DNA from: Acidobacteriota bacterium
GTDB lineage: Bacteria > Acidobacteriota > UBA4820 > DSQY01
Direction: 5' to 3'
DNA: 64,000 nucleotides
NCBI GenBank assembly: GCA_049591295.1
Contig: JBAWEQ010000259.1
Location: forward strand, 25,812-89,811
The notes beneath the pieces are model-generated. The model was not told the DNA's origin and made no database searches. It saw only the letters and a program-made list of their open reading frames with translations. This document shows positions 27,634 through 51,517 of this stretch, piece after piece. The translations under genes and the position numbers were made by a program. Every line of letters starts with the position of its first letter. Positions within the stretch are counted from its first letter, which is position 1.

Positions 27634-28028
27634 GCTCCCTCCGCCGGATCCCATCGGGGTCCGGGCCTTGAGGTTAGCACAGTCGGTGTCATCAGCGATG
27701 GCCGCCGATCCTGCCGAGGGCCTCCTGGAAATGGGGAGAGCCCCTGTTCTCCACGTGGGTTCCGCCATCCAGGGCAGCCCTCCCTTCGTCCGTTCCGACC
27801 CATCCTCGATGGGTGTGCCGCTTCGGCACATCCGGGCCCCGATGCCCCGGCCGCTTTGGCACGGTTCATCCCTTCACATTTCACAATGAGCTGAAAAAAC
27901 GTCATTTCCCCTCCTCGGGGGAACTGGCATGCGTGATGCATTCAAGAAAACCTTCGGTGCCGAGGACAACGTCCCAGGCGCCGAGAGGTTCGGCCCCTCC
28001 GAACCCAATCCCTCCCTCCCCTTCCACA

Positions 28029-31989: not shown

Positions 31990-32226
31990 GACCTTTTCCC
32001 CCTCCGAAGCGGTCGGCCTTCGCCGCACCTTCCCGGTACCCTCAGCGGCGGGGCGCCGCTTTGCGAGTCATCCCCGTCGCTCTCCCTCCAAGAGAAGCCC
32101 TTCCGACGGGTCGCGGGTTCTATGTACTCCGCGCTACCGCCCATACTGCCCAACCGGCACCACCCGATCGCTCCGGGGACCGCCTTCGAGGAAACCCTCG
32201 AGATGGTGATGTCGGCTTCGCCGCGA

Positions 32227-35208: not shown

Positions 35209-35697
35209 GTGATCATGCCAACCCGCTACCGGGGCACGGAAGAGGAAGAGAGAGCGCTGAACGCCTTCATCACGCTCATGCGGGCCGGGGAGTCGCTCTC
35301 CGCCCGTCTGACCCGCGATCTGGCGGGCAAGGGTCTGACCATGACTCAGTTCGGGGCTCTTGAGGCCCTGCTCCATCTGGGCCCGCTCTGCCAGCGTGAT
35401 CTGGGGAGCAAGCTGCTCAGGAGCGGCGGCAACATCACCCTCGTCGTGGACAACCTGGAGAAGCAGGGCTTGGTCCGCCGCGATCGGGACGGATCGGACC
35501 GCCGCTACGTCACGGTGAGCCTCACGTTCGAGGGCCGGCGCCTCATCGAGCGCGTCTTCAGGGAGCACCTGACACTCATCGTAGGCGAGATGGCCGTTCT
35601 CTCACCGCGAGAACAGGAGAATCTGCGCAGGCTCTGTCGTTCCCTCGGCCTGGGCGTGAAACAGCACAAGGGGGGCACCGAGCCCCCAAAGGAGTGA
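35209..35697 (+). CDS. MarR-family transcriptional regulator
   Basis: Winged HTH (TMTQFGALEALLHLGPLCQRDLGSKLL...DRRYVTVSLT). Confidence 0.8.
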   Translation: MIMPTRYRGTEEEERALNAFITLMRAGESLSARLTRDLAGKGLTMTQFGALEALLHLGPLCQRDLGSKLLRSGGNITLVVDNLEKQGLVRRDRDGSDRRYVTVSLTFEGRRLIERVFREHLTLIVGEMAVLSPREQENLRRLCRSLGLGVKQHKGGTEPPKE

Positions 35698-35700
35698 AAC

Positions 35701-36114
35701 ATGGATCGGTCATTGGAACGCTACGCCCCTCTGATCGGAAGGATCTTGCTCTCCGTCATCTTCTTGTTCTCGGCCTTTGGCAAGGTCACCCACTTCTCGG
35801 GTATGGAGCAGTTCATGGCCTCCAAGGGCATGCCGGCGGTGCCGGTGCTGCTCGTGCTGGCCCTGCTCACGGAGGCGCTGGGAGGGCTCTCTCTCCTGTT
35901 GGGATTCAAGGCCAGGTGGGGAGCGCTTCTGCTCTTCTTGTTCCTCATTCCGACCACGCTGATCTTCCATGACTTCTGGGCCCTCACGGGAGCCATGCGG
36001 CAGGACATGCAGATCCACTTCCTCAAGAACCTTGCCATCATGGGCGGCCTCTTGATGGTCGCCGCCAACGGCCCCGGGGCCTTCAGCCTGGACAAGCCGG
36101 CCAAGGGTCGCTGA
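35701..36114 (+). CDS. DoxX-family membrane protein
   Basis: 137 aa with four TM helices and a DoxX pattern. Confidence 0.7.
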   Translation: MDRSLERYAPLIGRILLSVIFLFSAFGKVTHFSGMEQFMASKGMPAVPVLLVLALLTEALGGLSLLLGFKARWGALLLFLFLIPTTLIFHDFWALTGAMRQDMQIHFLKNLAIMGGLLMVAANGPGAFSLDKPAKGR

Positions 36115-36210
36115 GCACCCCATGAACTTCTGGGCAGGCGTGATGAACAGGGCCCTCTCGCCTGCCTTATTCGCTGTTCCCCTGGCCCTATCCAGAAAAG
36201 GAGTCATTCC

Positions 36211-36825
36211 ATGAAGGTCTACGTCGTTTTCTACAGCATGTACGGCCACATTTACCGCATGGCGGAAGCCGTGGCCGAAGGGGCACGGCAGGTTCCCGGA
36301 GCCGAAGTGAAGCTCTTCCAGGTCCCCGAGCTCGTCCCCCCGGAAGTCCTGGAGAAGAGCGGTGCGACGGCGGCCCGCAAGACCTTCGCCCACGTCCCCG
36401 TCATCGCCCCCGATCAGCTCGCGGAGGCCGACGCCATCCTCTTCGGCGCTCCCACGCGGTTCGGGAACATGTGCGCCCAGATGCGCAACTTCCTCGACCA
36501 GACCGGCGGCCTCTGGGCCGCGGGCGCCCTCATCGGCAAGGTGGGCAGCGTCTTCACGGCCACGGCCACCCAGCACGGCGGCCAGGAGAGCACGATCCTG
36601 AGCTTCCACACCACGCTGCTGCATCACGGGATGATGGTGGTGGGCGTCCCCTACTCCGAGGCCCGGCAGATGACGCTCGACGAGATCACCGGAGGATCTC
36701 CCTACGGCGCCTCCACGATCACGGGCGGCCAGGGCCAGCGCCAGCCCAGCGAGAACGAGCTGGCTATCGCCCGCTTCCAGGGCAAACACGTGGCCGAGAT
36801 CGCCGCTAGGCTGTGCGCCAAGTGA
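36211..36825 (+). CDS. wrbA: NAD(P)H:quinone oxidoreductase, type IV (WrbA)
   Basis: Flavodoxin-like fold: [13 protein letters not shown]...[10 protein letters not shown]...[24 protein letters not shown]. Confidence 0.85.
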
Positions 36826-36854
36826 TCTGGAGCGAGAAAGGGGCGAGGTGAAGC

Positions 36855-37295
36855 ATGCGCGTCAAGCGGCTCGGCCACGTGGTCCTGAGGGTCCGGGAAC
36901 TGGAGCGCTCGGTCCGCTTCTACGGGGAGGTGCTCGGCCTCAGAGAGGTGGCGCGCTATGGGGGCCGGATGGCCTTCTTCTCTCTGGGCGAGAACCATCA
37001 TGATCTGGCCCTGCAGGAAGTGGGGGCGGGGGCTCCTTCGCCCCACCCCCGCTCCGTGGGCCTATACCACGTGGCCTTCAAGGTGGGCGACAGCATCGAG
37101 GAACTGCGCGCCTGGCGGGATCGCCTCGAAAGCCACGGCGTCCCGATCCTGGGCGCGAGCGACCACCGGGTGAGCCAGGCGCTCTACGTGACCGATCCCG
37201 ACGGCATCGAGATCGAACTCTACGTGGACGCGGACCCCGCCGTGTGGCGGAATGACCCCTCGGCCGTGGCCACCATCGAACCCATCGATCTTTAG
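36855..37295 (+). CDS. VOC-family (glyoxalase/bleomycin-resistance/dioxygenase) protein
   Basis: GHVVLRV...LGL N-terminal motif and paired beta-alpha-beta-beta-beta modules. Confidence 0.75.
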   Translation: MRVKRLGHVVLRVRELERSVRFYGEVLGLREVARYGGRMAFFSLGENHHDLALQEVGAGAPSPHPRSVGLYHVAFKVGDSIEELRAWRDRLESHGVPILGASDHRVSQALYVTDPDGIEIELYVDADPAVWRNDPSAVATIEPIDL

Positions 37296-37425
37296 GCGGA
37301 ACGCAGGCGGCACGGAAGGCAGCAGAGGGAGACTTCCGGCATCATCCTCGACTTTCGCTCCGGCAGCCGGCCGGGCCGCCAGGTTACGGCGGCCCAGACC
37401 TTCGCGGCTGTCGGATCACCGCAAT

Positions 37426-38136
37426 ATGGAGGCGGACATGATCACCACACGCAAAGCAAGCGACCGAGGCCACTTCGACCACGGCTGGCTCGATACCTAT
37501 CACAGTTTCTCTTTCGCCGGTTATTTCGATCCCAGCCACATGGGCTTTCGAGTCCTGCGGGTCATCAACGAGGACCGGGTGGCGCCGGGAGAAGGGTTCG
37601 ACACCCACCCGCACAACGACATGGAGATCATCACCCTCGTCCTGGAGGGCGCCCTGCGCCACCAGGACAGCATGGGCAACGGCTCGGTCATCCGGCCCGG
37701 CGAGGTGCAGCGGATGAGCGCCGGCACCGGCGTGACCCACAGCGAATTCAACGCCTCCGAGACGGAGCCCGTTCACCTCTACCAGATCTGGATCCTTCCG
37801 GAACGGAAGGGGTTGCCGCCGAGCTACGAGCAGAAGGCCTTTCCCCCCGACCCGACGGCTGGGGGCCTGCAACTCGTGGCCTCGCGCGACGGCCGCGAAG
37901 GCTCCGTCACCATCCACCAGGACGCCAGCCTCTACCTGGCGAAGTTGGAGAAGGGGGAGAGCGTGAAGCACCCCCTTGCGCCCGGCCGCCACGCCTGGGT
38001 TCAGGTGGCCACGGGCGCGGTGGAGGTGAACGGCCTCGACCTGCGATCGGGCGACGGGCTGGCGGTGAGCGGCGAGGAGTCCCTCCACCTCTCCGCCTCG
38101 CCTGCTGGGGAGCTTCTCCTCTTCGATCTGCCCTGA
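37426..38136 (+). CDS. Pirin-family protein
   Basis: The cupin HPHNDMEIIT...E metal site matches pirin. The true start is internal to the 294-aa ORF. Confidence 0.8.
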   Translation: MEADMITTRKASDRGHFDHGWLDTYHSFSFAGYFDPSHMGFRVLRVINEDRVAPGEGFDTHPHNDMEIITLVLEGALRHQDSMGNGSVIRPGEVQRMSAGTGVTHSEFNASETEPVHLYQIWILPERKGLPPSYEQKAFPPDPTAGGLQLVASRDGREGSVTIHQDASLYLAKLEKGESVKHPLAPGRHAWVQVATGAVEVNGLDLRSGDGLAVSGEESLHLSASPAGELLLFDLP

Positions 38137-38221: not shown

Positions 38222-40132
38222 CTATTTGCCGGCCGGAGCGGCCTTTTTCTTGGCGTCCATCTTGTTGAGAATGGCTTCCATCTGGTCCATCGCCCTGTTC
38301 ATGGCCTTCATGGTGATGTCGAAGGGGGCATCGGTGGTCATATCGACGCCGGCCACCTTGAGCTCCTCCACCGGGGGCAGGGAGCTTCCGAGGGTGAGGA
38401 ACTTCCGGTAGTCCTTCACGGCGTCCGGCTTGCCCTCCATGATCATCTGCGAGATGGCCGTGGACGCCGTGATGGAAGTGGCGTAGCTATAGACGTAGAA
38501 ATTGTAGTAGAAGTGCGGGATGAAGGCCCACTCGGAGTAGCAGACCGGGTTGATCTCGGTGATCCCCTTGTCCACCCCGTAGTAATCGTTGATGATGCCG
38601 GCGTAGGCCTTGTTGAGGTTCTCGCCCGTGAGCGGCTGGCCGCTCTCCACCATCTGGTGGATCTTCAGCTCGAACTCGGCGAACTGCGCCTGCCGGAAGA
38701 GCGTCTGGCGGATGTTGTCCACGTAGCTGCCCAGCAGGAAGAGCTTCATGGCGTCGCTGTCGGTGTGCTTGAGCATGTAGTCCATGAGAAGGTTCTCGTT
38801 GCACGTGCTCGCCACCTCGGCCACGAAGATGGTGTAGTCGCTCGTGGGGAACGGCTGGGTCTTGTTGGAGTAATAGCTGTGCATGGTGTGGCCCGATTCG
38901 TGGGCCAGGGTCGAGACGTCCTCGTAGCTGCCGTTGAAATTGAGAAGCATGAAGGGGTGGACGTCGTAGGCCGCGCCGTTGCTGTAGGCGCCGCTGTGCT
39001 TGCCCGGCGAGGGGTAGAAGTCAACCCAGCGATGCGCGTACCCGTTCTTCAGCACGTCCACGTAGTCCTGGCCCAGAGGCGCCACGGCCTTCAGGACCAG
39101 GTCCTTGGCCTGGTCCGCCGTGTACTTCTCGTCCACCTCTTTGATGATGGGCGCGTAGAGGTCCGAGTAGCGGAGCTGGTCCAGCCCCATGATCCGCTGG
39201 CGCAGCTTGAGGTAGCGCCAGAGGGTGGGCAGGTTCTTGTGGACGTTCTTGAGGAGGTTGGTGTAGACCACCGTCGGGATGTTGGGCCCGTCGAGGGCCG
39301 AGCTGAGGCAGTCTTTGTAGTTGCGGGCCTTGGCGAAGAAGAGGTCCTTGTCCACCTCGCCGTTCAGGAGGGTGCCGTAGGTGCCCTTGAACTGGTCCAG
39401 GTTGCCGAAGAAGGCCTGGAAGACGGACTCGCGGTCCCACCGGTTGGGCACGGCCCGGTATTTGGTGTAGGCCGATGCGTCCAGCTTGACCGTCTCGCCG
39501 TTGCTGAGGGTCACCGTGGCCCTCGGGTTGTCGGCGTCCGAGAAGACGCTGAAGATGGAATCCGGCGTTCCCGACACCAGCGAGGCATCGGCCATGATCT
39601 TCTCCTCGGCCGGCGAGAGCGTGTGCGGCTTGAGGCGGATGATGTCCTCGATGACCGGCTTGTAGATCGCGAGACCGGGCTCCTCCTTCAGGAAGGCCTC
39701 GATCTTGGCGCTCGGGATCTCCAGGATCTCCGGATCCACCCACGCCGTCTTGGCTCCGAACTCCGCGCCCAGGGGATCCAGGGACTGTCTCATCTCCATG
39801 GCGTGGGCGTCCCGGACGTCGAGGTCCGATTTCTGGGAGGCGTAGGTGGCCAGGCGAGTGAACTCCTTCTTCAGATCGAAGAGGAGGTTCATGCAGCCTA
39901 GCAGTTCCTTCGGGGAACTACCTAGCTTGCCCTTGTACTGGGCCACCTCGGGGAGCCGCTTCTCGAGGTCCTTCTTGGCCGATTCCCACGCGGCGTCCGT
40001 CGGATAGACATCCGAAAGGTCCCACTTGTCCTGGTCGGGTATCTTGGAACGGTCCATAGCCTGGACGGACGCCCCCGCCAAGAAGAGGGACGCCACCGCG
40101 GCGGCCATCAGAGACGTTACGGTGCATTTCAT
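38222..40132 (-). CDS. pepF: Secreted M3-family oligoendopeptidase F
   Basis: Signal peptide, an HESGH zinc-binding motif, and M3B length and layout. Confidence 0.8.
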   Translation of the reverse strand: MKCTVTSLMAAAVASLFLAGASVQAMDRSKIPDQDKWDLSDVYPTDAAWESAKKDLEKRLPEVAQYKGKLGSSPKELLGCMNLLFDLKKEFTRLATYASQKSDLDVRDAHAMEMRQSLDPLGAEFGAKTAWVDPEILEIPSAKIEAFLKEEPGLAIYKPVIEDIIRLKPHTLSPAEEKIMADASLVSGTPDSIFSVFSDADNPRATVTLSNGETVKLDASAYTKYRAVPNRWDRESVFQAFFGNLDQFKGTYGTLLNGEVDKDLFFAKARNYKDCLSSALDGPNIPTVVYTNLLKNVHKNLPTLWRYLKLRQRIMGLDQLRYSDLYAPIIKEVDEKYTADQAKDLVLKAVAPLGQDYVDVLKNGYAHRWVDFYPSPGKHSGAYSNGAAYDVHPFMLLNFNGSYEDVSTLAHESGHTMHSYYSNKTQPFPTSDYTIFVAEVASTCNENLLMDYMLKHTDSDAMKLFLLGSYVDNIRQTLFRQAQFAEFELKIHQMVESGQPLTGENLNKAYAGIINDYYGVDKGITEINPVCYSEWAFIPHFYYNFYVYSYATSITASTAISQMIMEGKPDAVKDYRKFLTLGSSLPPVEELKVAGVDMTTDAPFDITMKAMNRAMDQMEAILNKMDAKKKAAPAGK

Positions 40133-40257
40133 GCGCTACCTCCCTTTCACAAACTGCCTGTGTTCCCGCTTTCCGAGCCCCAGGCCGAGACGCACCCAGG
40201 CCCGCCGGGTGCATTTCGGCCACTTGGTAGTATACGCCCGCCATACGGGCAAGGGTT

Positions 40258-41052
40258 TCAGAGAGAGCGGACCGGCGCCGCCTCCCTGGCCAGGTGGGCC
40301 GCGCCCAGGGCGCCGGTGAGCTGGGGGCGTTCGGGGATCCGGAAGGAGACGCCGAGGAACTCCTCCAGGCACCGGACCAGATCTACGTTGAGCGCCCCCC
40401 CTCCCGTGAAGACGGCCGGTTCCCCCACGCCCGCCTGGCGGACCAGCCCGGCGAGCCGCTTGGCCATGGCGCGGTGGACGGCGTGGGCGATGTCGGGCAC
40501 CGCCTCGCCCCGGGCGATGAGCGAGATGACCTCGCTCTCGGCGAAGACCGTGCAGGTGGAGGACATGGCCAGCTCGCGCGTGCTGTTGTTCCCCGCGGGG
40601 CCGAGCCCCTCGATGCCCGTGCGGAGCGTCGCGGCCATGGCGTTGAGGAACCGGCCCGTGCCCGCGGCGCACTTGTCGTTCATGGCGAAGGCGAGCACCC
40701 GGCCCGAGGCCTCCAGCCTGATGGCCTTGCTGTCCTGTCCCCCCACGTCCACCACGAGGGCGGCGCCCGGAAAGAGGGCGCAGGCCCCCCGGGCGTGACA
40801 GGTGATCTCCGTCACCCGCTTCTGGACGAAAGGAAGGGCCTCGCGCCCGTAGCCCGTGCCCACCACGAACGCCAGATCTTCGCTCCGTGCCCCCGCCGCG
40901 GAGACGGCCCCATCGAGCGCATCCCTCCCGCAGACGGCGAGCTGGGGCGTGGTCTCGGCCATCCCCCAGCCCAGCAGCCGCCCCTCCGCGTCCAGGACCA
41001 CCGCCTTGGCCGTCATGGAGCCCACGTCCAGTCCGCCGTAGAGGGAGGCCAT
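40258..41052 (-). CDS. BadF/BadG/BcrA/BcrD-type ATPase (HgdC-like activase of 2-hydroxyacyl-CoA dehydratase)
   Basis: The true start MASLYGGLDVGSMTAKAVVLD is an actin-like ATPase phosphate-1 motif. Conserved Cys for the bridging [4Fe-4S]. Internal to the 408-aa ORF. The start codon abuts the upstream dehydratase stop. Confidence 0.75.
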   Translation of the reverse strand: MASLYGGLDVGSMTAKAVVLDAEGRLLGWGMAETTPQLAVCGRDALDGAVSAAGARSEDLAFVVGTGYGREALPFVQKRVTEITCHARGACALFPGAALVVDVGGQDSKAIRLEASGRVLAFAMNDKCAAGTGRFLNAMAATLRTGIEGLGPAGNNSTRELAMSSTCTVFAESEVISLIARGEAVPDIAHAVHRAMAKRLAGLVRQAGVGEPAVFTGGGALNVDLVRCLEEFLGVSFRIPERPQLTGALGAAHLAREAAPVRSL

Positions 41053-42365
41053 CACGCCGCCTCCAGGGATTCGATGAAGGCCATCAGCCGGGTCCGCGCC
41101 GCCGCCTCGGCCCAGCTCCTGAAGTCCGTCATGTCCGCCTCCAGAACTACGCTCCTGACGCCCAGCCGCTCCTCCAAGGCGCGCTGAATGCCGTATTGCC
41201 CGAGGGAGTATGGTTTGCACGAACGGGCCGAGTGGAGCACGAGCCCGTCCACGGAGAAATCCTTTGCGATCTGCTCCATGAGATTCAGCCTGTTCTCCAG
41301 GTCCCGGTTGAGAAAGATGAGCCCGTAGGCCCGGGCCAGCGAGCCCCATGGCTCCTTCTCGTCGATGCGCACAGCGGGCTCGGCCCAGGCGTGCGTGTAG
41401 GTGCCCGCCACCAGGGCGCAGCCGTTCTCGGCGAAGAGGCGGGAGAGCGGCTGGAGAGCGAACCACACGGCGATGTTGTCCCACAGGAGCCGGTGGCGCT
41501 CTCCCGGCACCGCCGCCACACCCCTCTCCACCCGCTCCTTCAGCTCCTTGAGGAGCCCCTCGTAGTAGCGCTCGCAGACGGGGAGACCGCGCAGGGCCAC
41601 CACCGGCGCGAGGTGGACGAAGGCGTCGAAGAGGGTCATGGGGGTTGGCCTCGCCTGGAGCGTGGAAAGCACCTCACCCCACAGCGCGGCGCTCCTGCGG
41701 GAGGAGAGGAGAACCTCCCGGAAGCGCTCCTCCCTGAAATCGGTGCCGGTGATACGCTCCAGCTCGGGCACAAGGGCCCGGAGCTGGTCGCCCACGTATC
41801 GCAGGGCGGCCTCATCCGGCTCGCCGTGGACGTAGGGCGTGTCCACGAGGAGGAACGGGATGCGGTAATGGTGAGCCAGGGCCTTGAACCAGTAGAGGAC
41901 GGTCTGGCAGATATTGTTGGTGCAGAAGAGCAGATCGGGCGCCGGAAGCTTCCCCACCGGGGTTCTGCCCGAGAGGGCGTGGCCGAGGTCAACCTTGGCG
42001 TAGGAGCAGAGGTCCAGGGAGTATCCGGCCTCCTCGGCCACCTCGCAGAGCTCGGGGCCCATGCGGCGGGCGCCGCAGACCGCCGAGTGGTTCTCCGGAT
42101 ACAGGGTGTAGCAGCCGAAGGCCCTGAGCAGCTCCACCGGCGCCCCGCTCGTGACCCACGCCACGGGCCGCACCCCCTTGACGTACCGGGCCAGCCCGTA
42201 GTGCCGGGTCATGATCCGGCGCAGCTCGTGCCGGCTCTCTAGCGGAGGCCCGAAGAAGGGCTCCCGGGACGCCGGCGGACGGCGGGGCCCCGACGAGAGG
42301 CGCGTCATCCAGTCCAGCCCGGCCCCCCTCATGAAGGCGAAGCGCAGATCCGACCAGGGTTTCAT
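41052..42365 (-). CDS. 2-hydroxyacyl-CoA dehydratase family subunit (HgdA/BcrC-like)
   Basis: 437 aa with HGD-D family conserved Cys and DTPYV-like motifs. Its 4-nt overlap with the next gene indicates an operon. Confidence 0.7.
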   Translation of the reverse strand: MKPWSDLRFAFMRGAGLDWMTRLSSGPRRPPASREPFFGPPLESRHELRRIMTRHYGLARYVKGVRPVAWVTSGAPVELLRAFGCYTLYPENHSAVCGARRMGPELCEVAEEAGYSLDLCSYAKVDLGHALSGRTPVGKLPAPDLLFCTNNICQTVLYWFKALAHHYRIPFLLVDTPYVHGEPDEAALRYVGDQLRALVPELERITGTDFREERFREVLLSSRRSAALWGEVLSTLQARPTPMTLFDAFVHLAPVVALRGLPVCERYYEGLLKELKERVERGVAAVPGERHRLLWDNIAVWFALQPLSRLFAENGCALVAGTYTHAWAEPAVRIDEKEPWGSLARAYGLIFLNRDLENRLNLMEQIAKDFSVDGLVLHSARSCKPYSLGQYGIQRALEERLGVRSVVLEADMTDFRSWAEAAARTRLMAFIESLEAA

Positions 42366-43516
42366 GGAATTGACTCCAGGAAGGCCTGGATCCGCGTCAC
42401 GAGCGAAGCGGGCGGTTCAGGCTCCAGCTCGCTCTCGGCCTGGAGGAGGGGCACCCCCTCCGCGCGCAAGGCTTCGACTAGGGCCGGCCGCTCGAAGCCC
42501 TCGGGTTCGCAGAATTTCATGGCCAGAAAGATCACGCCCCGGGCGTCCGAGCGCTCCACCAGGCGGCGCAGGAACGCGATGCGCTCCGGAAGGGGCGAGC
42601 CGGCGGTGGAGCAGGGGGGCCAGGCGAGCTGGCGCCGGGCCAGGGCCGCCCACGGATCTGTTGGCAACTCCGGGGGCTCGCGAAGGACCCTTCGCCCGCA
42701 CGCGATCAGGTCGTCCTCGGCGATCCGTATCCCTTCCCCGTCCAGCCACCGAAGAAGCGAAGCCGGGGCGGGCAGCACCCCGGAGAGGAGGATGGGCACC
42801 CCCTCCTTCAGGGGCTGCTCAGCGCGGCGCTCGCGCAGAAAGGCCTCCAGCCGGGCCAGCGCCTCCTCCGGCCAGAGGTACTCGCAGGAGCGGACCGCCT
42901 CGTAGAACTCGGTGGCGCTGGCGCGGAGCCTTGCCTCCGCTCGCAAGCGGTAAAGGTCCCGCAAGAGGCCGTCCCGGCGCGCTCCCCACGCCACGGCCTC
43001 CTCCAGCGCCCCATCCCGCATGGGCCCCGTCACTCGGTCGAGCGCCTGGGAGAGGCTCGCCAGCTGGCTCTCGGCGTAGGCCAGTGCCTGCGGTCCCGAG
43101 CCCCTCGGCGGATACCAGGCGAGGCAGGGCTTTTCTTCGCGAAGCAGATCCTTCACCAGCGATGAGAGGTTCTGCAGGCTGTCGCAGGTGTGGGGAAATA
43201 CAAAGAGGTCCACGGGGGCGAGCGTTCCGGAGAGATAGAGGCCCAGCCCCCTCTTGACCACGGGGCAGACGAAGCTCTGGAGGTGGGCTAAGGTCAGCTC
43301 CACATCCCCGGGCGGATCCCACACCTCGCCGGCGCAGAGTCCGTGGGCCCACAGCAGCTCCGCCGGATAGCGCGCCGGCCACACCGCGGCCAGGCCCCGC
43401 CCGTTAATCCTCTTTTGCTCCGTGAGGTACGCCCTCCGGCCCATCATCGGCTCCGGGGGTGTCCGGTGCACCGACCGGCCGGTGGCGGCAGCGGCCGGTT
43501 CAGGCTGAAGCCCCAT
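42362..43516 (-). CDS. 2-hydroxyacyl-CoA dehydratase family subunit (HgdB-like); alternative start at 43447 (MMGRRAYL)
   Basis: 384 aa, homologous to the partner subunit, with conserved Cys residues (C...C...C). Confidence 0.65.
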   Translation of the reverse strand: MGLQPEPAAAATGRSVHRTPPEPMMGRRAYLTEQKRINGRGLAAVWPARYPAELLWAHGLCAGEVWDPPGDVELTLAHLQSFVCPVVKRGLGLYLSGTLAPVDLFVFPHTCDSLQNLSSLVKDLLREEKPCLAWYPPRGSGPQALAYAESQLASLSQALDRVTGPMRDGALEEAVAWGARRDGLLRDLYRLRAEARLRASATEFYEAVRSCEYLWPEEALARLEAFLRERRAEQPLKEGVPILLSGVLPAPASLLRWLDGEGIRIAEDDLIACGRRVLREPPELPTDPWAALARRQLAWPPCSTAGSPLPERIAFLRRLVERSDARGVIFLAMKFCEPEGFERPALVEALRAEGVPLLQAESELEPEPPASLVTRIQAFLESIP

Positions 43517-43550
43517 GCTAGACTGGGCTTCCGTGAAGAAGGAGGTGGGG

Positions 43551-45422
43551 ATGCGTTGGTCATGGTTGGTTATGTTGATCTCCCTCTGCCTGCCGCTGCT
43601 GGCCTCGGCCGGGGACGCGTTCGATCCCCTGCCCGGCGACCAGCGCCGGCTCTACCGGTTCGACCTCGCCAGGAACTTCTACGCCGACCGGGCGGCCTGG
43701 CAGGCCGACGTGGACCGGGCCAAGGCCCTGATCGGCCGCGTCGAATCCTATAGGGGCAAGCTTCTGGACGGCCCAGAGTCCCTTCTCGCCGTCATGGAAC
43801 TCCAGCGCGACCTGGAGGACCTGACCACGAAATTATACGCCTACGGCGAATTCCGCGCCGCCGTGAACACCTCCGACCGGGAGGCTTACGAGGCTTACCA
43901 GAGGCTGATGGCCGATCTGGAGGCCAGGACCAGCTTCATCCGCGTGGAGCTGCTCGGCCTCACGGAGTCCCGGCTGAAGGCCTTGGAGGGAGCGGAGCCG
44001 CGGCTTTCTTCCTATCGCTACCTGCTCGAGGAGACGGTGCGGATGGGACCGCACACGCTCTCCGAGCGCGAGGAATCCCTCCTCGCCTCGCTGGGCCCAG
44101 ACCTCACCGCCTGGCAGCCCGTGCTTTTCCAGAAGGCCTTCGACCGATACCCCTTCCCCTCCATCCGCGTGGGAGAGAAGTCCCTTAATGTCCACTCGGA
44201 CTTCGAGACCCTCATCAGGAACCCCGACCGCTCCATCCGCGAGCGGGCCTTCCGTCAGTACTACGACGCCCTCCGCCAGAGCAGCGACTTGGCCGGCTTC
44301 GGCCTCCTGCGCGAAATGAAGGCCTACAACGAAGTCGCTCGGCTCAGGGGCTTCCCGACCTACTACGACGAGACCCTCTTCGAGCGCTTTCTCACCCGGC
44401 CCCAGATCCTCAACCTCTTCGGCCAGATCGAGAAACGCCTGGCTCTCTACAGGGCTTACCAGGAGTGGCGCATGAAGGAGGTGGAGGCCCAGACGGGGGT
44501 GGCCCGCGCGGAGATCTGGGACATGGAGCTCCCGCCGGACGATCTTCCCCAGCCGCGCACCACCGCGGATCAGGCGGTGGGGCTCGTGGAGGAGAGCCTC
44601 GCCGTCCTGGGGCCGGAGTACTCCGCCGACCTGCGCCGCTTGCTCGATCCCCGCCACGGCTCCATCGACATCGCCGGCGGGCCGGGCCGGGGCCAGGGCG
44701 CCTTCACCGAGGGCAACCTCGGCTTCTTCATGGACAACTTCCAGGGCTACCTCGGCGACGCCTCCACTATCGCCCACGAGTCCGGCCACGCCGTCCACTA
44801 CCAGCTCGTGAAGGACCACCGGGGCTCCCTCCTCTTCGCCCGCGGCCCCTCCTACATGACCGAGTCCTTCGCCATGTTCAACGAGTGGCTGCTGCGCGAC
44901 CACCTCCTCAAGACCGCCAAGGACCCCGCCCTCCGCGAGATGGTCCGCAGGGACTCGCTCAACGAGATGATGTATCTCTGGGAGCTGGCGCGGCGCGCGA
45001 AGTTCGAGATGGTGGCCTACGACCGGGTCGCCGCGGGGGAGATCACGGACGAGAGGGGTTTCGACAAGGCCTGCGAGGACACGGGCCGCCTCTACGATTC
45101 CTGGTTCCAGCGGTATCCGGAGCTGGAGGTGCACTGGATGCGCAAGCACCACTACTGGACCGTGCCCACCTACTACGTGAACTACGTCCTGGCCCACCTG
45201 CTGGCCCTCAAGTACTACCAGCTCTACCTGGAGGACCCCGCGGGCTTTGCCCCGCGCTACGTCGCCATGGTGGAGAACGGGTTCCCCGAACCCGCGGCGG
45301 AGATCCTGAAGAAGAGCCTGGGGATCCACCTCGGAGACCCGGACCTCCTCGCCGGCACCTTCGCGCTGATCCAGAAGCGCTTCGACGAAGAGAGGGCGCG
45401 GGGCGCCTCACCGGCCGGGTGA
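43551..45422 (+). CDS. Secreted M3-family oligoendopeptidase F paralog
   Basis: AAGGAGGTG RBS, signal peptide MRWSWLVMLISLCLPLLASA, and an HESGH motif. Confidence 0.8.
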   Translation: MRWSWLVMLISLCLPLLASAGDAFDPLPGDQRRLYRFDLARNFYADRAAWQADVDRAKALIGRVESYRGKLLDGPESLLAVMELQRDLEDLTTKLYAYGEFRAAVNTSDREAYEAYQRLMADLEARTSFIRVELLGLTESRLKALEGAEPRLSSYRYLLEETVRMGPHTLSEREESLLASLGPDLTAWQPVLFQKAFDRYPFPSIRVGEKSLNVHSDFETLIRNPDRSIRERAFRQYYDALRQSSDLAGFGLLREMKAYNEVARLRGFPTYYDETLFERFLTRPQILNLFGQIEKRLALYRAYQEWRMKEVEAQTGVARAEIWDMELPPDDLPQPRTTADQAVGLVEESLAVLGPEYSADLRRLLDPRHGSIDIAGGPGRGQGAFTEGNLGFFMDNFQGYLGDASTIAHESGHAVHYQLVKDHRGSLLFARGPSYMTESFAMFNEWLLRDHLLKTAKDPALREMVRRDSLNEMMYLWELARRAKFEMVAYDRVAAGEITDERGFDKACEDTGRLYDSWFQRYPELEVHWMRKHHYWTVPTYYVNYVLAHLLALKYYQLYLEDPAGFAPRYVAMVENGFPEPAAEILKKSLGIHLGDPDLLAGTFALIQKRFDEERARGASPAG

Positions 45423-45489
45423 GCCCGGTCCCCAGCCGGCCGCGAAGACCGGCGACCGCTGCCGCCGCACAAGGGGCCGGTCCCTCCCC

Positions 45490-45534
45490 TTGACAAGTTC
45501 TTCTCCCCTCGTTAAATTACCAAACAGTTGGTTT
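45490..45534 (+). promoter_or_regulatory. Sigma70-type promoter (TTGACA-17-TAAATT) with an overlapping ACCAA-N4-TTGGT inverted repeat, candidate TetR operator
   Basis: TTGACA at 45490-45495 and TAAATT at 45513-45518. The palindromic ACCAAacagTTGGT at 45519-45532 lies immediately upstream of the tetR-like gene. Confidence 0.55.
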
Positions 45535-45578
45535 AACCTTTTAGTTGAACCGGCCAGTTATCGATAGGAAGGAGAAGC

Positions 45579-46304
45579 ATGGCCGCCGCCGAAGAGTCGC
45601 AGCAGCAGGGAACCAGGACGGCCATCCTCGATGCCGCCGCCCGCGAATTCGCCGAGTCGGGCTTCGCAGGCGGTCGGGTAGACGAAATCGCCCGGCGCGC
45701 CGGCGTCAACAAGGCCATGCTCTACTACCACGTGGGCAACAAGTCGGCGCTCTACGAGGCCGTCCTGCTGCGGTGGATGGATCAGCTCTTCGAGGAACTC
45801 GACCGGCGAATCTCACCGGAGATGGAGGCAGAGGAGCAACTGGCCGCCCTGGCCGGAACCTTCGAAGCGCTCGTCGGGCGCAACCCTCAATACCCCCAGA
45901 TCCTGGTGCGGGAGTTCTCCACCGGCGGGCAGAACCTCTCCCCCCGCGTGATGACCAAGCTGCTGGAACTCTTCCGGAGGGAGGGCCGGATCCTGTCGGA
46001 GGGCAGACGGGCCGGAACGCTCAGGAAGGCCGGTCCCATCACGGTGCACATCCTCCTGGTCGTGGGCACCGTGATGCACCTCATGGGCCGCCAGATCCGC
46101 GAGCGGATCCTGGCCCTCAACCTGGGCGACATCCCGGAGATTCCCGCTTCTCCCTCGCAGATCGTCGTGGACCTGCTGCTCAATGGCCTCAAGGTGCGGC
46201 CACCTTGCGAAAAAGGCGCGGCGCGCCCCGGCGCGCCCCCATCGAAGGAGCGTCCTATCCGTCCCGCGGCCCATCCCCGCCGGCACAAGGAGAACTCACG
46301 ATGA
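45579..46304 (+). CDS. TetR/AcrR-family transcriptional regulator
   Basis: N-terminal HTH (TRTAILDAAAREFAESGFAGGRVDEIARRAGVNKAMLYYHV). Confidence 0.8.
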   Translation: MAAAEESQQQGTRTAILDAAAREFAESGFAGGRVDEIARRAGVNKAMLYYHVGNKSALYEAVLLRWMDQLFEELDRRISPEMEAEEQLAALAGTFEALVGRNPQYPQILVREFSTGGQNLSPRVMTKLLELFRREGRILSEGRRAGTLRKAGPITVHILLVVGTVMHLMGRQIRERILALNLGDIPEIPASPSQIVVDLLLNGLKVRPPCEKGAARPGAPPSKERPIRPAAHPRRHKENSR

Positions 46305-47290
46305 ACCGACGAACCACTCTCACGGCCTCCGGAGCCGCTCTGGCAGCGGTAGTGGCGCTGATCTCCTGCGGGCGCGGCGACGCGGGAGGAGCCATCAGGG
46401 TGTCCGGCAACATCGAAACCGACGAGACGCAGATCTCCTTCCGGGTCCCCGGGCGCATGGCCGTGCGTCTCGTGGACGAGGGCGACACGGTGAAGGCGGG
46501 CCAGGTGGTAGCACGCCTCGACGCCACCGACCTCAACCAGCAGGTGGCCCTCAGGCAGGCCGACGCAGACGCCGCGGCGGCCGCCCTCAAGGAGCTGCAG
46601 GACGGCTACCGCAAGGAGGACGTGGCTCAGGCCAAGGCGCGCCTCGACGCCGCCGAGGCCGAGGAGAACCGGCTCAAAGCCGACGACGCCCGCCAGCAGG
46701 ACCTGTTCAAGCGGGAGGTCATCTCGGCGCGCGAGTACGACGCCTCCCACGCCGCCCTTCTGACGGCCCAGGCGCAGAAGCGCGCCGCGGCCGAACAGTA
46801 CGCCCTCATGAAGAGCGGCTACCGGAGGGAGCAGATCGACCAGGCCAAAGCCAGGCTCGATGCCGCAAATCAGGCCCTGGATCTGGCGAAGACCCAGCTC
46901 GGATACGCGACGGCCGTCTCTCCGCTCTCGGGAGTGGTCCTCTCCAAAAACGCCGAGCCAGGCGAGGTCCTCGCCGCGGGGGCTCCCGTGGTGACGGTGG
47001 GCGACATCAGGGACGTCTACCTCCGGGCCTACATCGACGAGGCCGACCTGGGGCGAGTCAAGCTCGGGCAGGAGGTGAAGGTCACCACCGACAGCTACCC
47101 GGGCAAAGCCTACAAGGGGCGCATCGTCTTCATCTCGCCGGAGGCCGAATTCACGCCGAAGATGGTCCAGACCCAGCGGGAGCGCGTCAAGCTCGTCTAC
47201 CGGATCAAGATCGACATCTCCAATCCCGACCAGGAACTCAAGCCCGGCATGCCGGCGGATGGGGAGATTGAGGTGGGGCGTCCGTCGTGA
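46301..47290 (+). CDS. HlyD-family membrane fusion protein (YbhG-like)
   Basis: The ATG overlaps the tetR stop (ATGA). Lipoprotein-like N-terminus, long coiled coil, and beta-barrel. Confidence 0.8.
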   Translation: MNRRTTLTASGAALAAVVALISCGRGDAGGAIRVSGNIETDETQISFRVPGRMAVRLVDEGDTVKAGQVVARLDATDLNQQVALRQADADAAAAALKELQDGYRKEDVAQAKARLDAAEAEENRLKADDARQQDLFKREVISAREYDASHAALLTAQAQKRAAAEQYALMKSGYRREQIDQAKARLDAANQALDLAKTQLGYATAVSPLSGVVLSKNAEPGEVLAAGAPVVTVGDIRDVYLRAYIDEADLGRVKLGQEVKVTTDSYPGKAYKGRIVFISPEAEFTPKMVQTQRERVKLVYRIKIDISNPDQELKPGMPADGEIEVGRPS

Positions 47291-47318
47291 AGCCCCGAAC
47301 GGAGAGCCGGAGCCGCCC

Positions 47319-48257
47319 ATGAGCCAGAGCGAATCAGCGCCCGCCATCCAGACCGTCGGCCTGACCCGCGCCTTCGGGGAGCTCGTCGCGGTGAACGGGC
47401 TCACCCTCTCCGTAGCCGAGGGCGAAATCTTCGGGCTCGTGGGGCCGGACGGGGCAGGCAAGACGACCACCATGCGGATGCTCACGGGCATTCTGGATCC
47501 GACCGAGGGCGAAGTGTTCGTCACCGGTCTCGACGTCCGCCAGGAGCCCGAGGCCGTCAAGGAACGCATCGGCTACATGAGCCAGCGCTTCGGCCTCTAC
47601 CCCGACCTCACGGTGATGGAAAACATCGACTTCTACGCGGAGCTCTACGGCGTCCCGAAGAAGGGGCGCGGGGCGCAGGTGGAGCGCCTGCTCGCCTTCA
47701 GCAACCTGACACCCTTCAAGCGCCGGAGGGCAGGCAACCTCTCCGGCGGCATGAAACAGAAGCTCGGACTGGCCTGCGCCCTGGTGCACACCCCGAGGGT
47801 CCTCTTCCTGGACGAGCCAACCAACGGCGTGGACCCCGTCTCCCGCCGGGACTTCTGGCGCATCCTCTACCAGCTGCTCAAGGAGCGCGTCACGATCTTC
47901 GTCTCCACGGCCTATCTGGACGAGGCCGAGCGCTGCAACCGAATCGGCCTCATGCACAAGGGGAGCCTACTGGCGTACGACACGCCCGACGGCGTCAAGG
48001 GTCTCCTCAAGGGAAGCCTGCTCGAGATCCGCTGCGGGGAGTGCAGGCAGTCCTCCAAGGTGCTTCGCGCGGCCCGTATCGGCTCGGTGGCGGTCTTCGG
48101 AGACAAGGTGCACCTGCTGGTCCAGGACGCGGAGAGGGGCCGATCGGCCGCGGAGGCGGCCCTCCGCGCGGCCGGCGCCTCCCTCTTCGAAATCCGGGTG
48201 GCCGAGCCGTCCCTGGAGGACGTCTTCATTGCCACCGTCAGCGGAGGAGCGGCATGA
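47319..48257 (+). CDS. ABC transporter ATP-binding protein
   Basis: Walker A GPDGAGKTT, signature LSGGMKQKL, and Walker B LFLDEP. Confidence 0.85.
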   Translation: MSQSESAPAIQTVGLTRAFGELVAVNGLTLSVAEGEIFGLVGPDGAGKTTTMRMLTGILDPTEGEVFVTGLDVRQEPEAVKERIGYMSQRFGLYPDLTVMENIDFYAELYGVPKKGRGAQVERLLAFSNLTPFKRRRAGNLSGGMKQKLGLACALVHTPRVLFLDEPTNGVDPVSRRDFWRILYQLLKERVTIFVSTAYLDEAERCNRIGLMHKGSLLAYDTPDGVKGLLKGSLLEIRCGECRQSSKVLRAARIGSVAVFGDKVHLLVQDAERGRSAAEAALRAAGASLFEIRVAEPSLEDVFIATVSGGAA

Positions 48258-49237
48258 ACGGCGACCTGCCCGGAAAGCTCGCACTCGCCGTGACGCTCAA
48301 GGAACTGAGCCGAAGATTTGGCGATTTCGTGGCGGTGGACCGCGTCAGCCTGGAGGTGGCGAGAGGGGAGATCTTCGGCTTCCTGGGCCCCAACGGTGCC
48401 GGAAAGTCCACCACCATCCGCATGCTCTGCGGCCTGCTCGAACCGACCTCGGGCACCGGGACGGTGGCGGGCTTCGACATCACGACCCAGCCGGAGGCGA
48501 TCAAGCAGAATATCGGCTACATGAGCCAGAAGTTCTCCCTCTACGAAGATCTGACGGTGGAGGAGAACATCGACTTCTACAGCGGCATCTACCGCATCCC
48601 CCGCGAGAAGAAAGCCGCCCGCAAGGCCTGGGTGCTGGAGATGGCGGGCCTCGAGCCGCACCGCCGGATGCGGACGGGTCTCCTTCCCGGCGGCTGGAAG
48701 CAGCGGCTCTCCCTCGGCTGCGCGCTGCTCCATGAGCCCCCGGTGCTCTTCCTGGACGAGCCCACCTCCGGCGTGGACCCCATCAGCCGCCGGAGCTTCT
48801 GGGACCTCATCTACGAGCTGGCGGCGGGGGGGGTAACCATCTTCGTGACCACCCACTACATGGAGGAGGCCGAGTACTGCGACCGGCTGGGGCTGATCTA
48901 CCGCGGCCAGCTCATCGCGCTGGGCACGCCGGGTGCGCTCAAGGGCCGCTTCATGCAGGAACAGGTCCTCCAGGTGAGCTGCAGCGCGCCTCAGGACGCC
49001 CTGGAGTTGGTGGAGCGGGTGGCCGGAGTCAAAGAGGCGGCCATCTTCGGGAAGGATCTCCACGTCATCGCCAGCGACGCCGCGGCCATCTCCCAGCCGC
49101 TCAGGGCCGCCCTTGAATCGGCGGGCCATTCGGTCATGCGCATCGAGCGCATCGTTCCGAGCCTGGAGGACGTCTTCGTCTCCCTCATCGAACAGCGGGA
49201 CCGCGAAGAGGGCAGCCAGAAGGAGTTCGCGCGATGA
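48254..49237 (+). CDS. ABC transporter ATP-binding protein (second ATPase)
   Basis: Walker A GPNGAGKST and Walker B LFLDEP. The start codon overlaps the previous gene's stop. Confidence 0.85.
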   Translation: MNGDLPGKLALAVTLKELSRRFGDFVAVDRVSLEVARGEIFGFLGPNGAGKSTTIRMLCGLLEPTSGTGTVAGFDITTQPEAIKQNIGYMSQKFSLYEDLTVEENIDFYSGIYRIPREKKAARKAWVLEMAGLEPHRRMRTGLLPGGWKQRLSLGCALLHEPPVLFLDEPTSGVDPISRRSFWDLIYELAAGGVTIFVTTHYMEEAEYCDRLGLIYRGQLIALGTPGALKGRFMQEQVLQVSCSAPQDALELVERVAGVKEAAIFGKDLHVIASDAAAISQPLRAALESAGHSVMRIERIVPSLEDVFVSLIEQRDREEGSQKEFAR

Positions 49238-50367
49238 ACCTCCGCCGAACCCTGGCCGTGGCCCGGAAGGAGACCCTGCACGTCCTCAGGGATCCACGAG
49301 CGCTGGGCATTGCCATCGCCCTGCCGCTCTTCCTCCTCCTGCTCTTCGGCTACGCCCTCACCCTGGACGTGGACCACGTGCCGCTCGTGGTGTGGGACCA
49401 GAGCAACACGCCGCAGAGCCGGGAACTCGTCAGCCGCTTCTCGGGCTCCCGCTATTTCGACGTCAAGGCCCACGTGGAGGGATACGGCGCCATCGAGGAC
49501 GCCATCCTCAATGGGCGCACCCTGATGGCCCTCGTCATACCGCCCGACTACGCTCGCTGGCTGGATTCGGGGCGGTCGGCGGAGGTCCAGCTCATCACCG
49601 ACGGCAGCGATGCCAACACGGCCGCGATCGCCATGGGCTACGCGGAGACGGTGGTCCAGGGTTACTCGCAGCAGCTCCGGGTGGCCCTCGCGCGCCGGAC
49701 CCTGGGGCGGGCCCTCAAACCGCCTCTGGATGTGCGTGCGCGGGTCTGGTTCAACACCGAGATGGAGTCGAAGAACTTCATCGTGCCCGGCCTCATCGCC
49801 GTGATCATGATGCTCATCGCGGCACTCCTGACCTCCCTCACGGTGTCCCGCGAGTGGGAGACCGGGACCATGGAGCAGCTCATCTCCACGCCCCTCAGGG
49901 GATCGGAACTGGTGATCGGCAAGCTGGTCCCCTACTTCGGGGTGGGGATGCTCGACATGGTCCTGTCGGTGATGGCGGGCAGGTTCCTCTTCAGCGTTCC
50001 ACTGCGGGGCAGCGTGCTCCTGGTCTTCGCCATGGCGGCCATCTACCTGCTCGGCTCTCTCTCCATGGGCATGCTCATCAGCATCGTGGCCAAGAACCAG
50101 CTTCTCGCCAACCAGATGGCCTTCATGACCACCTTCCTGCCCGCCTTCCTCCTCTCGGGATTCATGTTCGACATCTCCAACATGCCCAAGGTGCTCCAGC
50201 TCGTGACCTACCTCGTGCCGGCGCGCTACTGCATCTTCCTGCTCAGAAGTCTGTACCTCAAGGGCGTGGGGCCCTCCATGCTCTGGAGCGAGGGTGTTTT
50301 CCTGCTCGCCTTCGCGGCTCTGATGCTGGGCCTCTCGCTGATCATATTCAAGAAGAAGCTGGAGTGA
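49234..50367 (+). CDS. ABC-2 family transporter permease (YbhS-like)
   Basis: N-terminal cytoplasmic segment, a large periplasmic loop, then six TM helices. The start overlaps the ATPase gene's stop. Confidence 0.8.
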   Translation: MNLRRTLAVARKETLHVLRDPRALGIAIALPLFLLLLFGYALTLDVDHVPLVVWDQSNTPQSRELVSRFSGSRYFDVKAHVEGYGAIEDAILNGRTLMALVIPPDYARWLDSGRSAEVQLITDGSDANTAAIAMGYAETVVQGYSQQLRVALARRTLGRALKPPLDVRARVWFNTEMESKNFIVPGLIAVIMMLIAALLTSLTVSREWETGTMEQLISTPLRGSELVIGKLVPYFGVGMLDMVLSVMAGRFLFSVPLRGSVLLVFAMAAIYLLGSLSMGMLISIVAKNQLLANQMAFMTTFLPAFLLSGFMFDISNMPKVLQLVTYLVPARYCIFLLRSLYLKGVGPSMLWSEGVFLLAFAALMLGLSLIIFKKKLE

Positions 50368-50374
50368 GGCGGCC

Positions 50375-51505: not shown

Positions 51506-51517
51506 GGAGAGAGTTCC

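Follow-up and report, generated by a model that had tools for sequence, protein, structure and literature searches.

A 2-hydroxyacyl-CoA dehydratase-type gene trio of an uncharacterised clade, flanked by two M3 peptidase genes, in an Acidobacteriota bacterium

Enzymes of the family that unites benzoyl-CoA reductases (BCR) and 2-hydroxyacyl-CoA dehydratases (HAD) carry out some of the hardest reductive radical chemistry in anaerobes, and a substrate has been assigned for only a handful of members. The closest described systems are HadBC of Clostridioides difficile with its ATPase HadI; the BzdNOPQ and MbdONPQ systems, in which the [8Fe-9S] double-cubane cluster of BzdN is held by Cys36/73/100/263/293/327 (PMC11971306); and PlsAR and Ger, HAD-family proteins with four modules that act on lipid esters (PMC12838417; PMC13159169). 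In the case of ether lipids, the authors of one study note that further enzymes may be involved (PMC11150832). Here we describe a three-gene unit of this family, encoding a beta subunit, an alpha subunit and an activase, which lies between two peptidase genes at positions 38222-45422 of a 64,000-nucleotide stretch of the Acidobacteriota contig JBAWEQ010000259.1 (hereafter the window; GC content about 67%). We find that this trio is a HAD-type system and not a benzoyl-CoA reductase: the alpha subunit matches HadB best, the beta subunit carries the HadC cysteine set, and the operon holds one ATPase gene.

Using an open reading frame (ORF) listing together with Pfam and NCBIfam family scans, we found all five genes of this region at the positions given in the original prediction. 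The trio is encoded on the minus strand. Its first gene, at 42362-43447, encodes a HadC-like subunit of the single-cubane type (beta; PF06050, 193 bits); the most likely start is the ATG at 43447, which gives a protein of 361 amino acids, the same size as its homologues. The second, at 41052-42365, encodes a HadB-like catalytic subunit of 437 amino acids (alpha; PF06050, 246 bits), and the third, at 40258-41052, an HgdC/HadI-type ATPase of 264 amino acids with the N-terminus MASLYGGLDVGS (activase; PF01869, 188 bits; TIGR00241, 229 bits against a cutoff of 125). The beta stop and the alpha start are combined in an ATGA at 42365-42362, and the alpha stop and the activase start have one base in common in a TGATG at 41054-41050. 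These junctions bear out the predicted overlapping three-gene unit, and we therefore conclude that beta, alpha and activase are translationally coupled.

The alpha subunit is most similar to HadB by every measure applied. In a sequence search of the PDB it scored 214 bits against HadB of C. difficile and 121 bits against MbdO/BzdO, and a clade profile built from 31 members gave 282 bits for HadB, 188 for MbdO and 173 for BzdO. The AlphaFold model of alpha (pLDDT 89, pTM 0.90) found its best PDB match in HadB (3o3m_A; root-mean-square deviation 1.7 Å, TM 0.86/0.94), compared with 2.7-3.1 Å and TM 0.83 for MbdO/BzdO. The cluster cysteines of HadB have their counterparts in C120, C153 and C383, all three of which are invariant across the clade. 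The scores nevertheless fall far short of equivalog level: alpha reached 259 bits on the NCBIfam HadB model against a cutoff of 750, 159 against 487 on the BcrB model and 121 against 449 on the BzdO model, and its identity to HadB is 32%. Two features are specific to the clade: a conserved N-terminal extension of about 40 amino acids, of which residues 2-24 are helical in the AlphaFold model, and the motif PENHxAxC97GA, whose H93 and C97 are invariant and adjoin the active-site Glu.

The beta subunit is more distant, at 22% identity to HadC. Direct comparison with PDB sequences gave 82 bits for HadC, 58 for BzdN and 40 for the double-cubane cluster protein (DCCP), and the NCBIfam models for HadC (79 bits, cutoff 700), BcrC (77 bits, cutoff 421) and the double-cubane proteins (75 bits) scored nearly equally. 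The cluster ligands are more telling. In an alignment of 60 clade beta subunits with HadC and BzdN, in which residues are numbered along the long 384-amino-acid ORF and not along the 361-amino-acid form that starts at 43447, the invariant residues C84, C111, C302 and C336 correspond to C72, C99, C291 and C325 of HadC. The position of BzdN C36 is occupied by an invariant Pro in the clade, and that of C263 is not conserved. Because the HadC set is present and the two distal BzdN ligands are missing, beta is a single-cubane subunit of the HadC type. We rejected a double cubane in beta on this alignment, despite the similar HadC, BcrC and DCCP model scores, and likewise rejected identity with DCCP itself: the subunits scored 61 and 75 bits on NF040772 (cutoff 350), and the enzyme, which is heteromeric, lacks the distal ligands.

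The activase contains the motifs NDKCAAGTG and SSTCTVF, whose cysteines, the ligands of a bridging [4Fe-4S] cluster, align with those of MbdQ and HadI. Its PDB matches were MbdQ (219 bits), HadI (196 bits) and HgdC (186 bits), and on the NCBIfam BzdQ model it scored 171 bits against a cutoff of 380. It is the one BcrAD_BadFG ATPase of the operon, a separate 264-residue protein, and a tblastn search with the activase found no second copy beside the beta-alpha-activase core of the related loci. The trio thus comprises the two HGD-D (PF06050) subunits and the BcrAD_BadFG (PF01869) ATPase by which the superfamily is recognised. Together, the domains, the cluster ligands and the alpha fold match support the prediction of a radical enzyme system, of the HAD/HgdC type. 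Nor do the subunits group with BcrBC/BzdNO, the outcome named in advance as contrary to this identification: alpha favours HadB, and beta lacks the double-cubane set. The ranking of nearest relatives is among HadB, HadC, HadI, HgdC, BzdN/O, MbdO/Q and DCCP. By identity and sub-cutoff scores, the trio is a deep branch of the HAD family.

Homologues of alpha are numerous, at 53-97% identity. A motif scan of 185,579 species genomes yielded 495 confirmed relatives, and a metagenome scan added 52 further loci. Among the best 80 of the 495, those at 66-97% identity are Acidobacteriota, some of them labelled Thermoanaerobaculia; almost all the others are Desulfobacterota or delta-proteobacterial metagenome-assembled genomes, with one Neomarinimicrobiota and one Anaerolineales label. 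Nearly all of the best-matching loci of this lineage of some 500 species genomes come from two groups for which classical amino-acid fermentation is not known. Some 130 loci all keep the order beta-alpha(-activase). Judged by these homologues, the operon is a member of an uncharacterised clade that is strongly conserved. Literature searches returned no paper on it; the sole lead is a report on Desulfosarcina cetonica, in which ketones induced two BCR/HGD subunits of the stand-alone kind (PMC7888143).

These results lead us to the explanation that we consider, on balance, the probable one: the trio is a complete, self-contained, ATP-primed Fe-S radical enzyme of an uncharacterised clade, the peptidases are not parts of it, and its substrate is by default an aliphatic 2-hydroxyacyl or enoyl thioester. 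The gene set, cluster ligands, fold and family placement were established above; for the electron path and the chemistry we infer the following. The activase homodimer would form around its bridging [4Fe-4S] cluster and take one electron from reduced ferredoxin or flavodoxin, and ATP hydrolysis would push this electron onto the single-cubane cluster of beta. From there it would move to the three-cysteine cluster of alpha, whose open iron site would bind the (thio)ester carbonyl of the substrate. The resulting ketyl radical would expel the adjacent hydroxyl to give a 2-enoyl thioester, or, in the reverse direction, water would be added to an enoyl thioester, with the electron recycled across many turnovers. 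The choice of an aliphatic 2-hydroxyacyl or enoyl thioester is a default guess, and the genomic context of the relatives speaks less for classical amino-acid fermentation than for acyl chains that end up in membrane lipids. Several observations weigh against this explanation. The nearest characterised enzyme is only 32% (alpha, HadB) and 22% (beta, HadC) identical, and since alpha and beta score 259 against 750 and 79 against 700 bits on the respective models, the reaction class is extrapolated. The N-terminal extension of alpha, with H93 and the invariant C97, could signal a different chemistry, and the conservation of one peptidase gene in five of seven Acidobacteriota lineage groups, described below, counts for something.

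The original prediction had also stated that no canonical pathway partner lies near the trio, and this held: a Pfam/NCBIfam survey that took in about 40 genes of the 64-kb window, and left a few ORFs without any family match, found no CoA-transferase, 2-hydroxyacid dehydrogenase, acyl-CoA dehydrogenase/electron-transfer flavoprotein (ETF) or additional Bcr gene. The search for partners was extended to the fetched related loci (designated by L-numbers), in which genes were called by a greedy longest-ORF method that is noisy in GC-rich DNA. Their ORFs were clustered and one representative per cluster was scanned, for 144 clusters within two genes of the trio. These neighbour clusters matched 180 Pfam families, none of which occurred in more than three clusters, and CoA-transferase, CoA ligase, acyl-CoA dehydrogenase and 2-hydroxyacid dehydrogenase were absent from the 25 most frequent families. 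The clade is a stand-alone unit, often amid housekeeping genes such as PgeF, HU, an aminotransferase, cmk, rpsA, sppA, dsrMKJOP and recBCD.

Several individual neighbours were considered as partners and rejected. A YbdL-like aminotransferase gene follows the activase in several Desulfobacterota; L088 places this gene in the housekeeping block PgeF-HU-aminotransferase-cmk-rpsA-sppA, and we read its position as inherited synteny. A link to biotin was suggested by L087 (61% identity), in which the beta-alpha pair has a bona fide BioB gene (L087:5602-6603) divergent to it and genes for an ECF transporter and FeoAB in the vicinity, and it was rejected as BioB lies beside the pair in L087 alone, with no recurrence. 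Two Desulfobacterota loci, L038 (12795-15769) and L065, offer the only context that resembles a Had operon: an AcrC-like acyl-CoA dehydrogenase gene follows the trio on the same strand (443 bits on the acryloyl-CoA reductase model, under its cutoff) and is itself followed by two more genes, at least one of them ETF-like (an ETF-alpha match). We rejected an acyl-CoA dehydrogenase/ETF or acyl-CoA synthetase partner for the clade, as each occurs within 10 kb of the trio in about six loci, near the rough expectation for fatty-acid-oxidising Desulfobacterota. M20 peptidase-family genes lie near the trio in three Desulfobacterota neighbour clusters.

The sole recurrent theme among the neighbours is glycerophospholipid synthesis, for which genes occur at a distance of no more than two or three genes from the trio, in five different arrangements and two phyla. 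L001 (6566-8922), L005 (6584-8937), L015, L018 and L095 encode, directly upstream on the same strand and adjoining the mraZ-dcw cluster, a divergent CDP-alcohol phosphatidyltransferase, a CdsA-like protein and an acyltransferase of the PlsC/OlsA kind; in L001 and L005, the loci with genes called, the stop of the acyltransferase gene overlaps the start of beta. A glycerol kinase gene, glpK (686 bits against a cutoff of 590), is divergent to the trio in L013 (1546-3051), L014 and L016. A fused PgsA-PssA-like transferase is encoded on the same strand, 43 nt upstream, in L027 and L031 (7552-8856), and a PmtA-like phospholipid N-methyltransferase on the same strand just after the activase in L024 (2695-3327), L040 and L069. 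Lastly, a PlsC-like acyltransferase gene is divergent, with one gene between, in seven loci (e.g., L054:3097-3684). Lipid genes account for about 7 of the 144 neighbour clusters, compared with a rough genomic background of 0.5-1%, an enrichment of about tenfold by a post hoc estimate in which the clusters are not fully independent. No lipid gene adjoins the trio in the window or in its closest relatives.

The two peptidase genes flank the trio. pepF1 (38222-40132, minus strand) encodes an oligoendopeptidase F of family M3B with 636 amino acids and the domains PF01432 and PF08439; it is preceded by the ribosome-binding site AGGGAGG and passes the PepF equivalog test (TIGR00181, 588 bits against a cutoff of 490). 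pepF2 (43551-45422, plus strand) most likely starts at the ATG at 43551, with the ribosome-binding site AAGGAGGTG, and encodes a divergent M3B peptidase of 623 amino acids (PF01432, 53 bits; PF08439, 48 bits) that fails the same test at 225 bits, although it contains HESGH at residue 409, as pepF1 does at residue 411. By inspection, both proteins have signal-peptide-like N-termini (MKCTVTSLMAAAVASLFLAGASVQA in PepF1 and MRWSWLVMLISLCLPLLASA in PepF2), a feature in which they differ from PepF (MEROPS M3B; TIGR00181); like PepF, PepF1 combines an M3 N-terminal domain with a catalytic domain and carries the HExxH motif. On these scores, PepF2 is not a PepF orthologue but a divergent representative of M3B. 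The original description of two secreted M3 paralogs, one convergent and one divergent, was thus correct in part. Both genes flank the trio and pepF2 is divergent, but pepF1 has the orientation of the trio and follows the activase after 125 nt, in tandem and not convergent; the proteins belong to a common family, but at 25% identity, and with PepF2 at 225 of the 490 bits required, they are not recent paralogues; and the case for secretion is the N-termini as judged by inspection alone. We conclude that the two are genuine and probably exported M3 enzymes.

The related loci show how regularly the peptidases lie beside the trio. In 15 of the 19 Acidobacteriota-type loci in which this could be determined, corresponding to five of seven lineage groups, pepF1 directly follows the trio in the same orientation; it is missing beside the trio in L006, L013, L014 and L016. 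Outside the Acidobacteriota, no M3 gene adjoins the trio in more than 100 loci. The distribution of pepF2 is narrower still: beyond the window, the divergent position is taken by pepF2 in no loci but L011, L012, L092 and L093, which are more distant than the five closest relatives (L007, L008, L009, L089 and L090), and the gene is missing from all five of these. The flanks of L007, L008 and L009 are 90-94% identical to the window at the nucleotide level, and the alpha subunits of the metagenome loci L089 and L090 are 95% identical. In place of window positions 43457-45613, L007-L009 carry a short piece of unrelated sequence, about 376 nt long in L007; no pepF2 remnant was found in these three relatives, and the breakpoint of the indel is clean, at 43457, 10 nt upstream of the beta ATG. 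We conclude that pepF1 and pepF2 are separate, lineage-specific neighbours of the trio and probably do not work together with it. Their adjacency is lineage-specific synteny, compatible with functional coupling yet no evidence for it, and an amino-acid-derived substrate gains nothing from it. The case shows, more generally, that genes may be as strikingly adjacent as these peptidase genes on both sides of an operon and still owe their position to an accident of one lineage.

The two spacers were also inspected. Between the activase and pepF1 (40133-40257, minus strand, 125 nt), an inverted repeat at 40183-40221 has 15-nt arms that are 87% complementary and a 9-nt loop, without a U tract; its fold z-score of -1.5 is not significant, and it could be a GC-rich-type terminator or a leader structure. 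A consensus scan found no terminator in this spacer. The element CGTATACT and the leader of about 85 nt before pepF1 are invariant in five close relatives, and L009 carries an insertion of about 170 nt (L009:12090-12267), rich in GAAAAGT/AAAAGTG repeats, between the activase and pepF1, just upstream of CGTATACT. This invariant leader and the location of the insertion suggest that pepF1 has its own promoter. On the other side of the trio, the best-supported starts of beta and pepF2 leave a divergent spacer of 103 nt (no strand assigned), exactly the shared control region of 43448-43550 that had been proposed. It contains a GC-rich palindrome, ACCGGCCGGT, at 43474-43483, with overlapping arms over 43463-43499. 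A conserved operator in this spacer was rejected, as the spacer is unconserved in L011, L012 and L093.

Other genes of the window lie at some remove from these questions. Upstream of the peptidase-trio region, at 35209-38136 on the plus strand, are genes for MarR, DoxX, a WrbA-type NAD(P)H:quinone oxidoreductase (332 bits), a glyoxalase and pirin, which look like a quinone or electrophile stress cluster unrelated to the trio. The pirin gene (37252-38136; segment 37293-38121) is missing from the otherwise collinear L007 and L009 and present in L008, L011 and L012; on such comparisons, the segment next to the trio is generally variable. Directly after pepF2, at 45579-52882, lies a probable efflux operon for a TetR regulator, a pair of ABC ATPases, a pair of ABC-2 permeases and an outer-membrane efflux protein, with one further ORF that is unassigned. 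A gene for a radical-SAM/SPASM protein with a PqqD-like domain (29043-30389) adjoins a 525-amino-acid ORF at 30451-32028 that has no Pfam match, and about 1.2 kb from its other side is a 627-amino-acid ORF (25948-27831), likewise without a Pfam match; together these could form a peptide-modification cluster. Elsewhere in the window are transporters, an aminotransferase gene 12 kb away and peptide-permease genes.

How, then, does the self-contained HAD-type enzyme that we favour compare with other explanations of the locus? The original prediction had suggested that peptide degradation feeds the trio. In its full form, this would be a peptide-fermentation module in which exported PepF1 and PepF2 release peptides whose amino acids are transaminated and reduced, and the trio dehydrates the 2-hydroxyacyl-CoA, as HadBC does in C. 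difficile. HadBC is the closest characterised relative among the references compared; pepF1 is retained downstream in 15 of 19 Acidobacteriota-type loci; M20 peptidase genes lie near the trio in the three Desulfobacterota clusters; the acyl-CoA dehydrogenase and ETF genes of L038 and L065 would suit such a pathway; and protein degradation with the help of secreted peptidases has been predicted for some marine Acidobacteriota studied together with Thermoanaerobaculia (PMC8528874). However, the window survey found no CoA-transferase, 2-hydroxyacid dehydrogenase or acyl-CoA dehydrogenase/ETF, and none recurs beside the clade; pepF2 is missing in the five closest relatives, and outside the Acidobacteriota no M3 gene lies by the trio; a conserved leader belongs to pepF1 itself, and in L009 the insertion sets this gene further apart; and the aminotransferase of the Desulfobacterota belongs to the housekeeping block. 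Compartments also disfavour the idea that the peptidases feed the trio: they are probably exported, and the oxygen-sensitive enzyme is cytoplasmic. We therefore regard a peptide-fermentation module as unlikely. A benzoyl-CoA reductase identity was rejected on cluster ligands, ATPase number and scores, and the related idea of a class I benzoyl-CoA-reductase-like dearomatising reductase, with its remaining subunits encoded elsewhere, is in our judgement exceedingly improbable. The label 'bcr-type benzoyl-CoA reductase subunit B' is given to homologues by several sources, MbdQ is a slightly better match for the activase than HadI (219 and 196 bits), and alpha and beta have secondary matches to the BcrB/BcrC and BzdO/BzdN models. 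These matches lie far under the Bcr/Bzd equivalog cutoffs (159 against 487 and 77 against 421), though, and HadB surpasses MbdO/BzdO by sequence, profile and fold. In addition, beta lacks the six-Cys [8Fe-9S] set, the operon has one ATPase gene and not two, and neither the window Pfam survey nor the genes beside the core of related loci revealed a second ATPase, a ferredoxin or a dienoyl-CoA pathway gene.

The neighbours of the relatives raise a different possibility, that the clade is a split three-protein HAD-family enzyme of anaerobic membrane glycerolipid metabolism and does not serve amino-acid fermentation. Possibly, such an enzyme interconverts 2-enoyl and 2-hydroxy fatty acyl thioesters for the adjoining acyltransferase, which would constitute an oxygen-independent route to 2-hydroxyacyl lipids; possibly, by analogy, it acts on a lipid ester carbonyl and reduces the ester bond, as a counterpart of the ether-forming PlsAR/Ger. 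The glycerolipid genes found by the trio in five arrangements and two phyla, in about 7 of 144 clusters, argue for this idea, as do PlsAR and Ger, which show that the superfamily can act on lipid esters with four matching modules. On the other hand, neither the window nor its closest relatives have an adjoining lipid gene and most loci have unrelated neighbours; Ger and PlsA are large fused proteins (Ger, 159 kDa), whereas the trio is split; and Pfam puts both subunits plainly in HGD-D. We hold this idea tentatively, as doubtful but the most novel of those considered. It is decidedly unlikely, in our view, that the trio is a HAD-fold enzyme with other reductive chemistry on a non-CoA substrate, such as the small-molecule reduction of double-cubane proteins or a reductive dehydroxylation. 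That proposal would accommodate the deep branching (32% and 22% identity to HadBC), the near-equal scores of beta, with 79 bits for the HadC model, 77 for BcrC and 75 for the double-cubane proteins, the clade-specific invariant C97/H93 by the catalytic Glu of alpha, and the housekeeping neighbourhoods of the clade; yet alpha keeps the HadB-type three-Cys site with a fold match at 1.7 Å, beta keeps single-cubane ligands, and the context gives no specific alternative substrate.

The favoured enzyme, a self-contained HAD-type system, belongs to a clade that lacks every canonical pathway partner, so its role represents a real gap in knowledge. Should the lipid association be true, the biosynthesis of lipids in anaerobic bacteria would gain a new enzyme, and the finding would bear on the interpretation of ether and tetraether biomarkers; either of the two lipid roles would be relevant to the formation of ether and branched tetraether lipids in Acidobacteriota and Desulfobacterota.

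Among known systems, the trio most resembles HadBC-HadI (PDB 3O3M, 4EHT): both have two HGD-D subunits and a separate HgdC-type ATPase, a three-Cys cluster in alpha and the HadC-type Cys set in beta, and HadB is the best match of alpha. The trio differs in its order, beta-alpha-activase; in the absence of a linked hadA CoA-transferase, ldhA, acdB and etfBA; in the extra N-terminus of about 40 amino acids in alpha, and in PENHxAxCGA where HadB has PENQAAGVAA; and in its hosts, which are Acidobacteriota and Desulfobacterota and not amino-acid-fermenting clostridia. With BzdNOPQ and MbdONPQ (PDB 8S02, 9G87/9GAI), at 24-27% identity, it has in common the superfamily, the fold (TM 0.83) and the cluster type of the three-Cys O subunit, and MbdQ is a related ATPase, the top PDB match of the activase. 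Those systems, however, have two distinct ATPase subunits where the trio has one, and an N subunit with a six-Cys [8Fe-9S] set, in which C36 is replaced by Pro and C263 is unconserved in the clade beta. PlsA and Ger are large fused proteins (159 kDa in the case of Ger), in contrast to the three separate small genes of the trio, which has no adjoining lipid gene in the window. As judged from their descriptions, PlsA-PlsR and Ger are nonetheless alike in being oxygen-sensitive members of the HAD family with four modules, two for activation and two for reduction/dehydration; they act on the ester carbonyl next to glycerol, and the relatives of the trio repeatedly adjoin glycerolipid genes.

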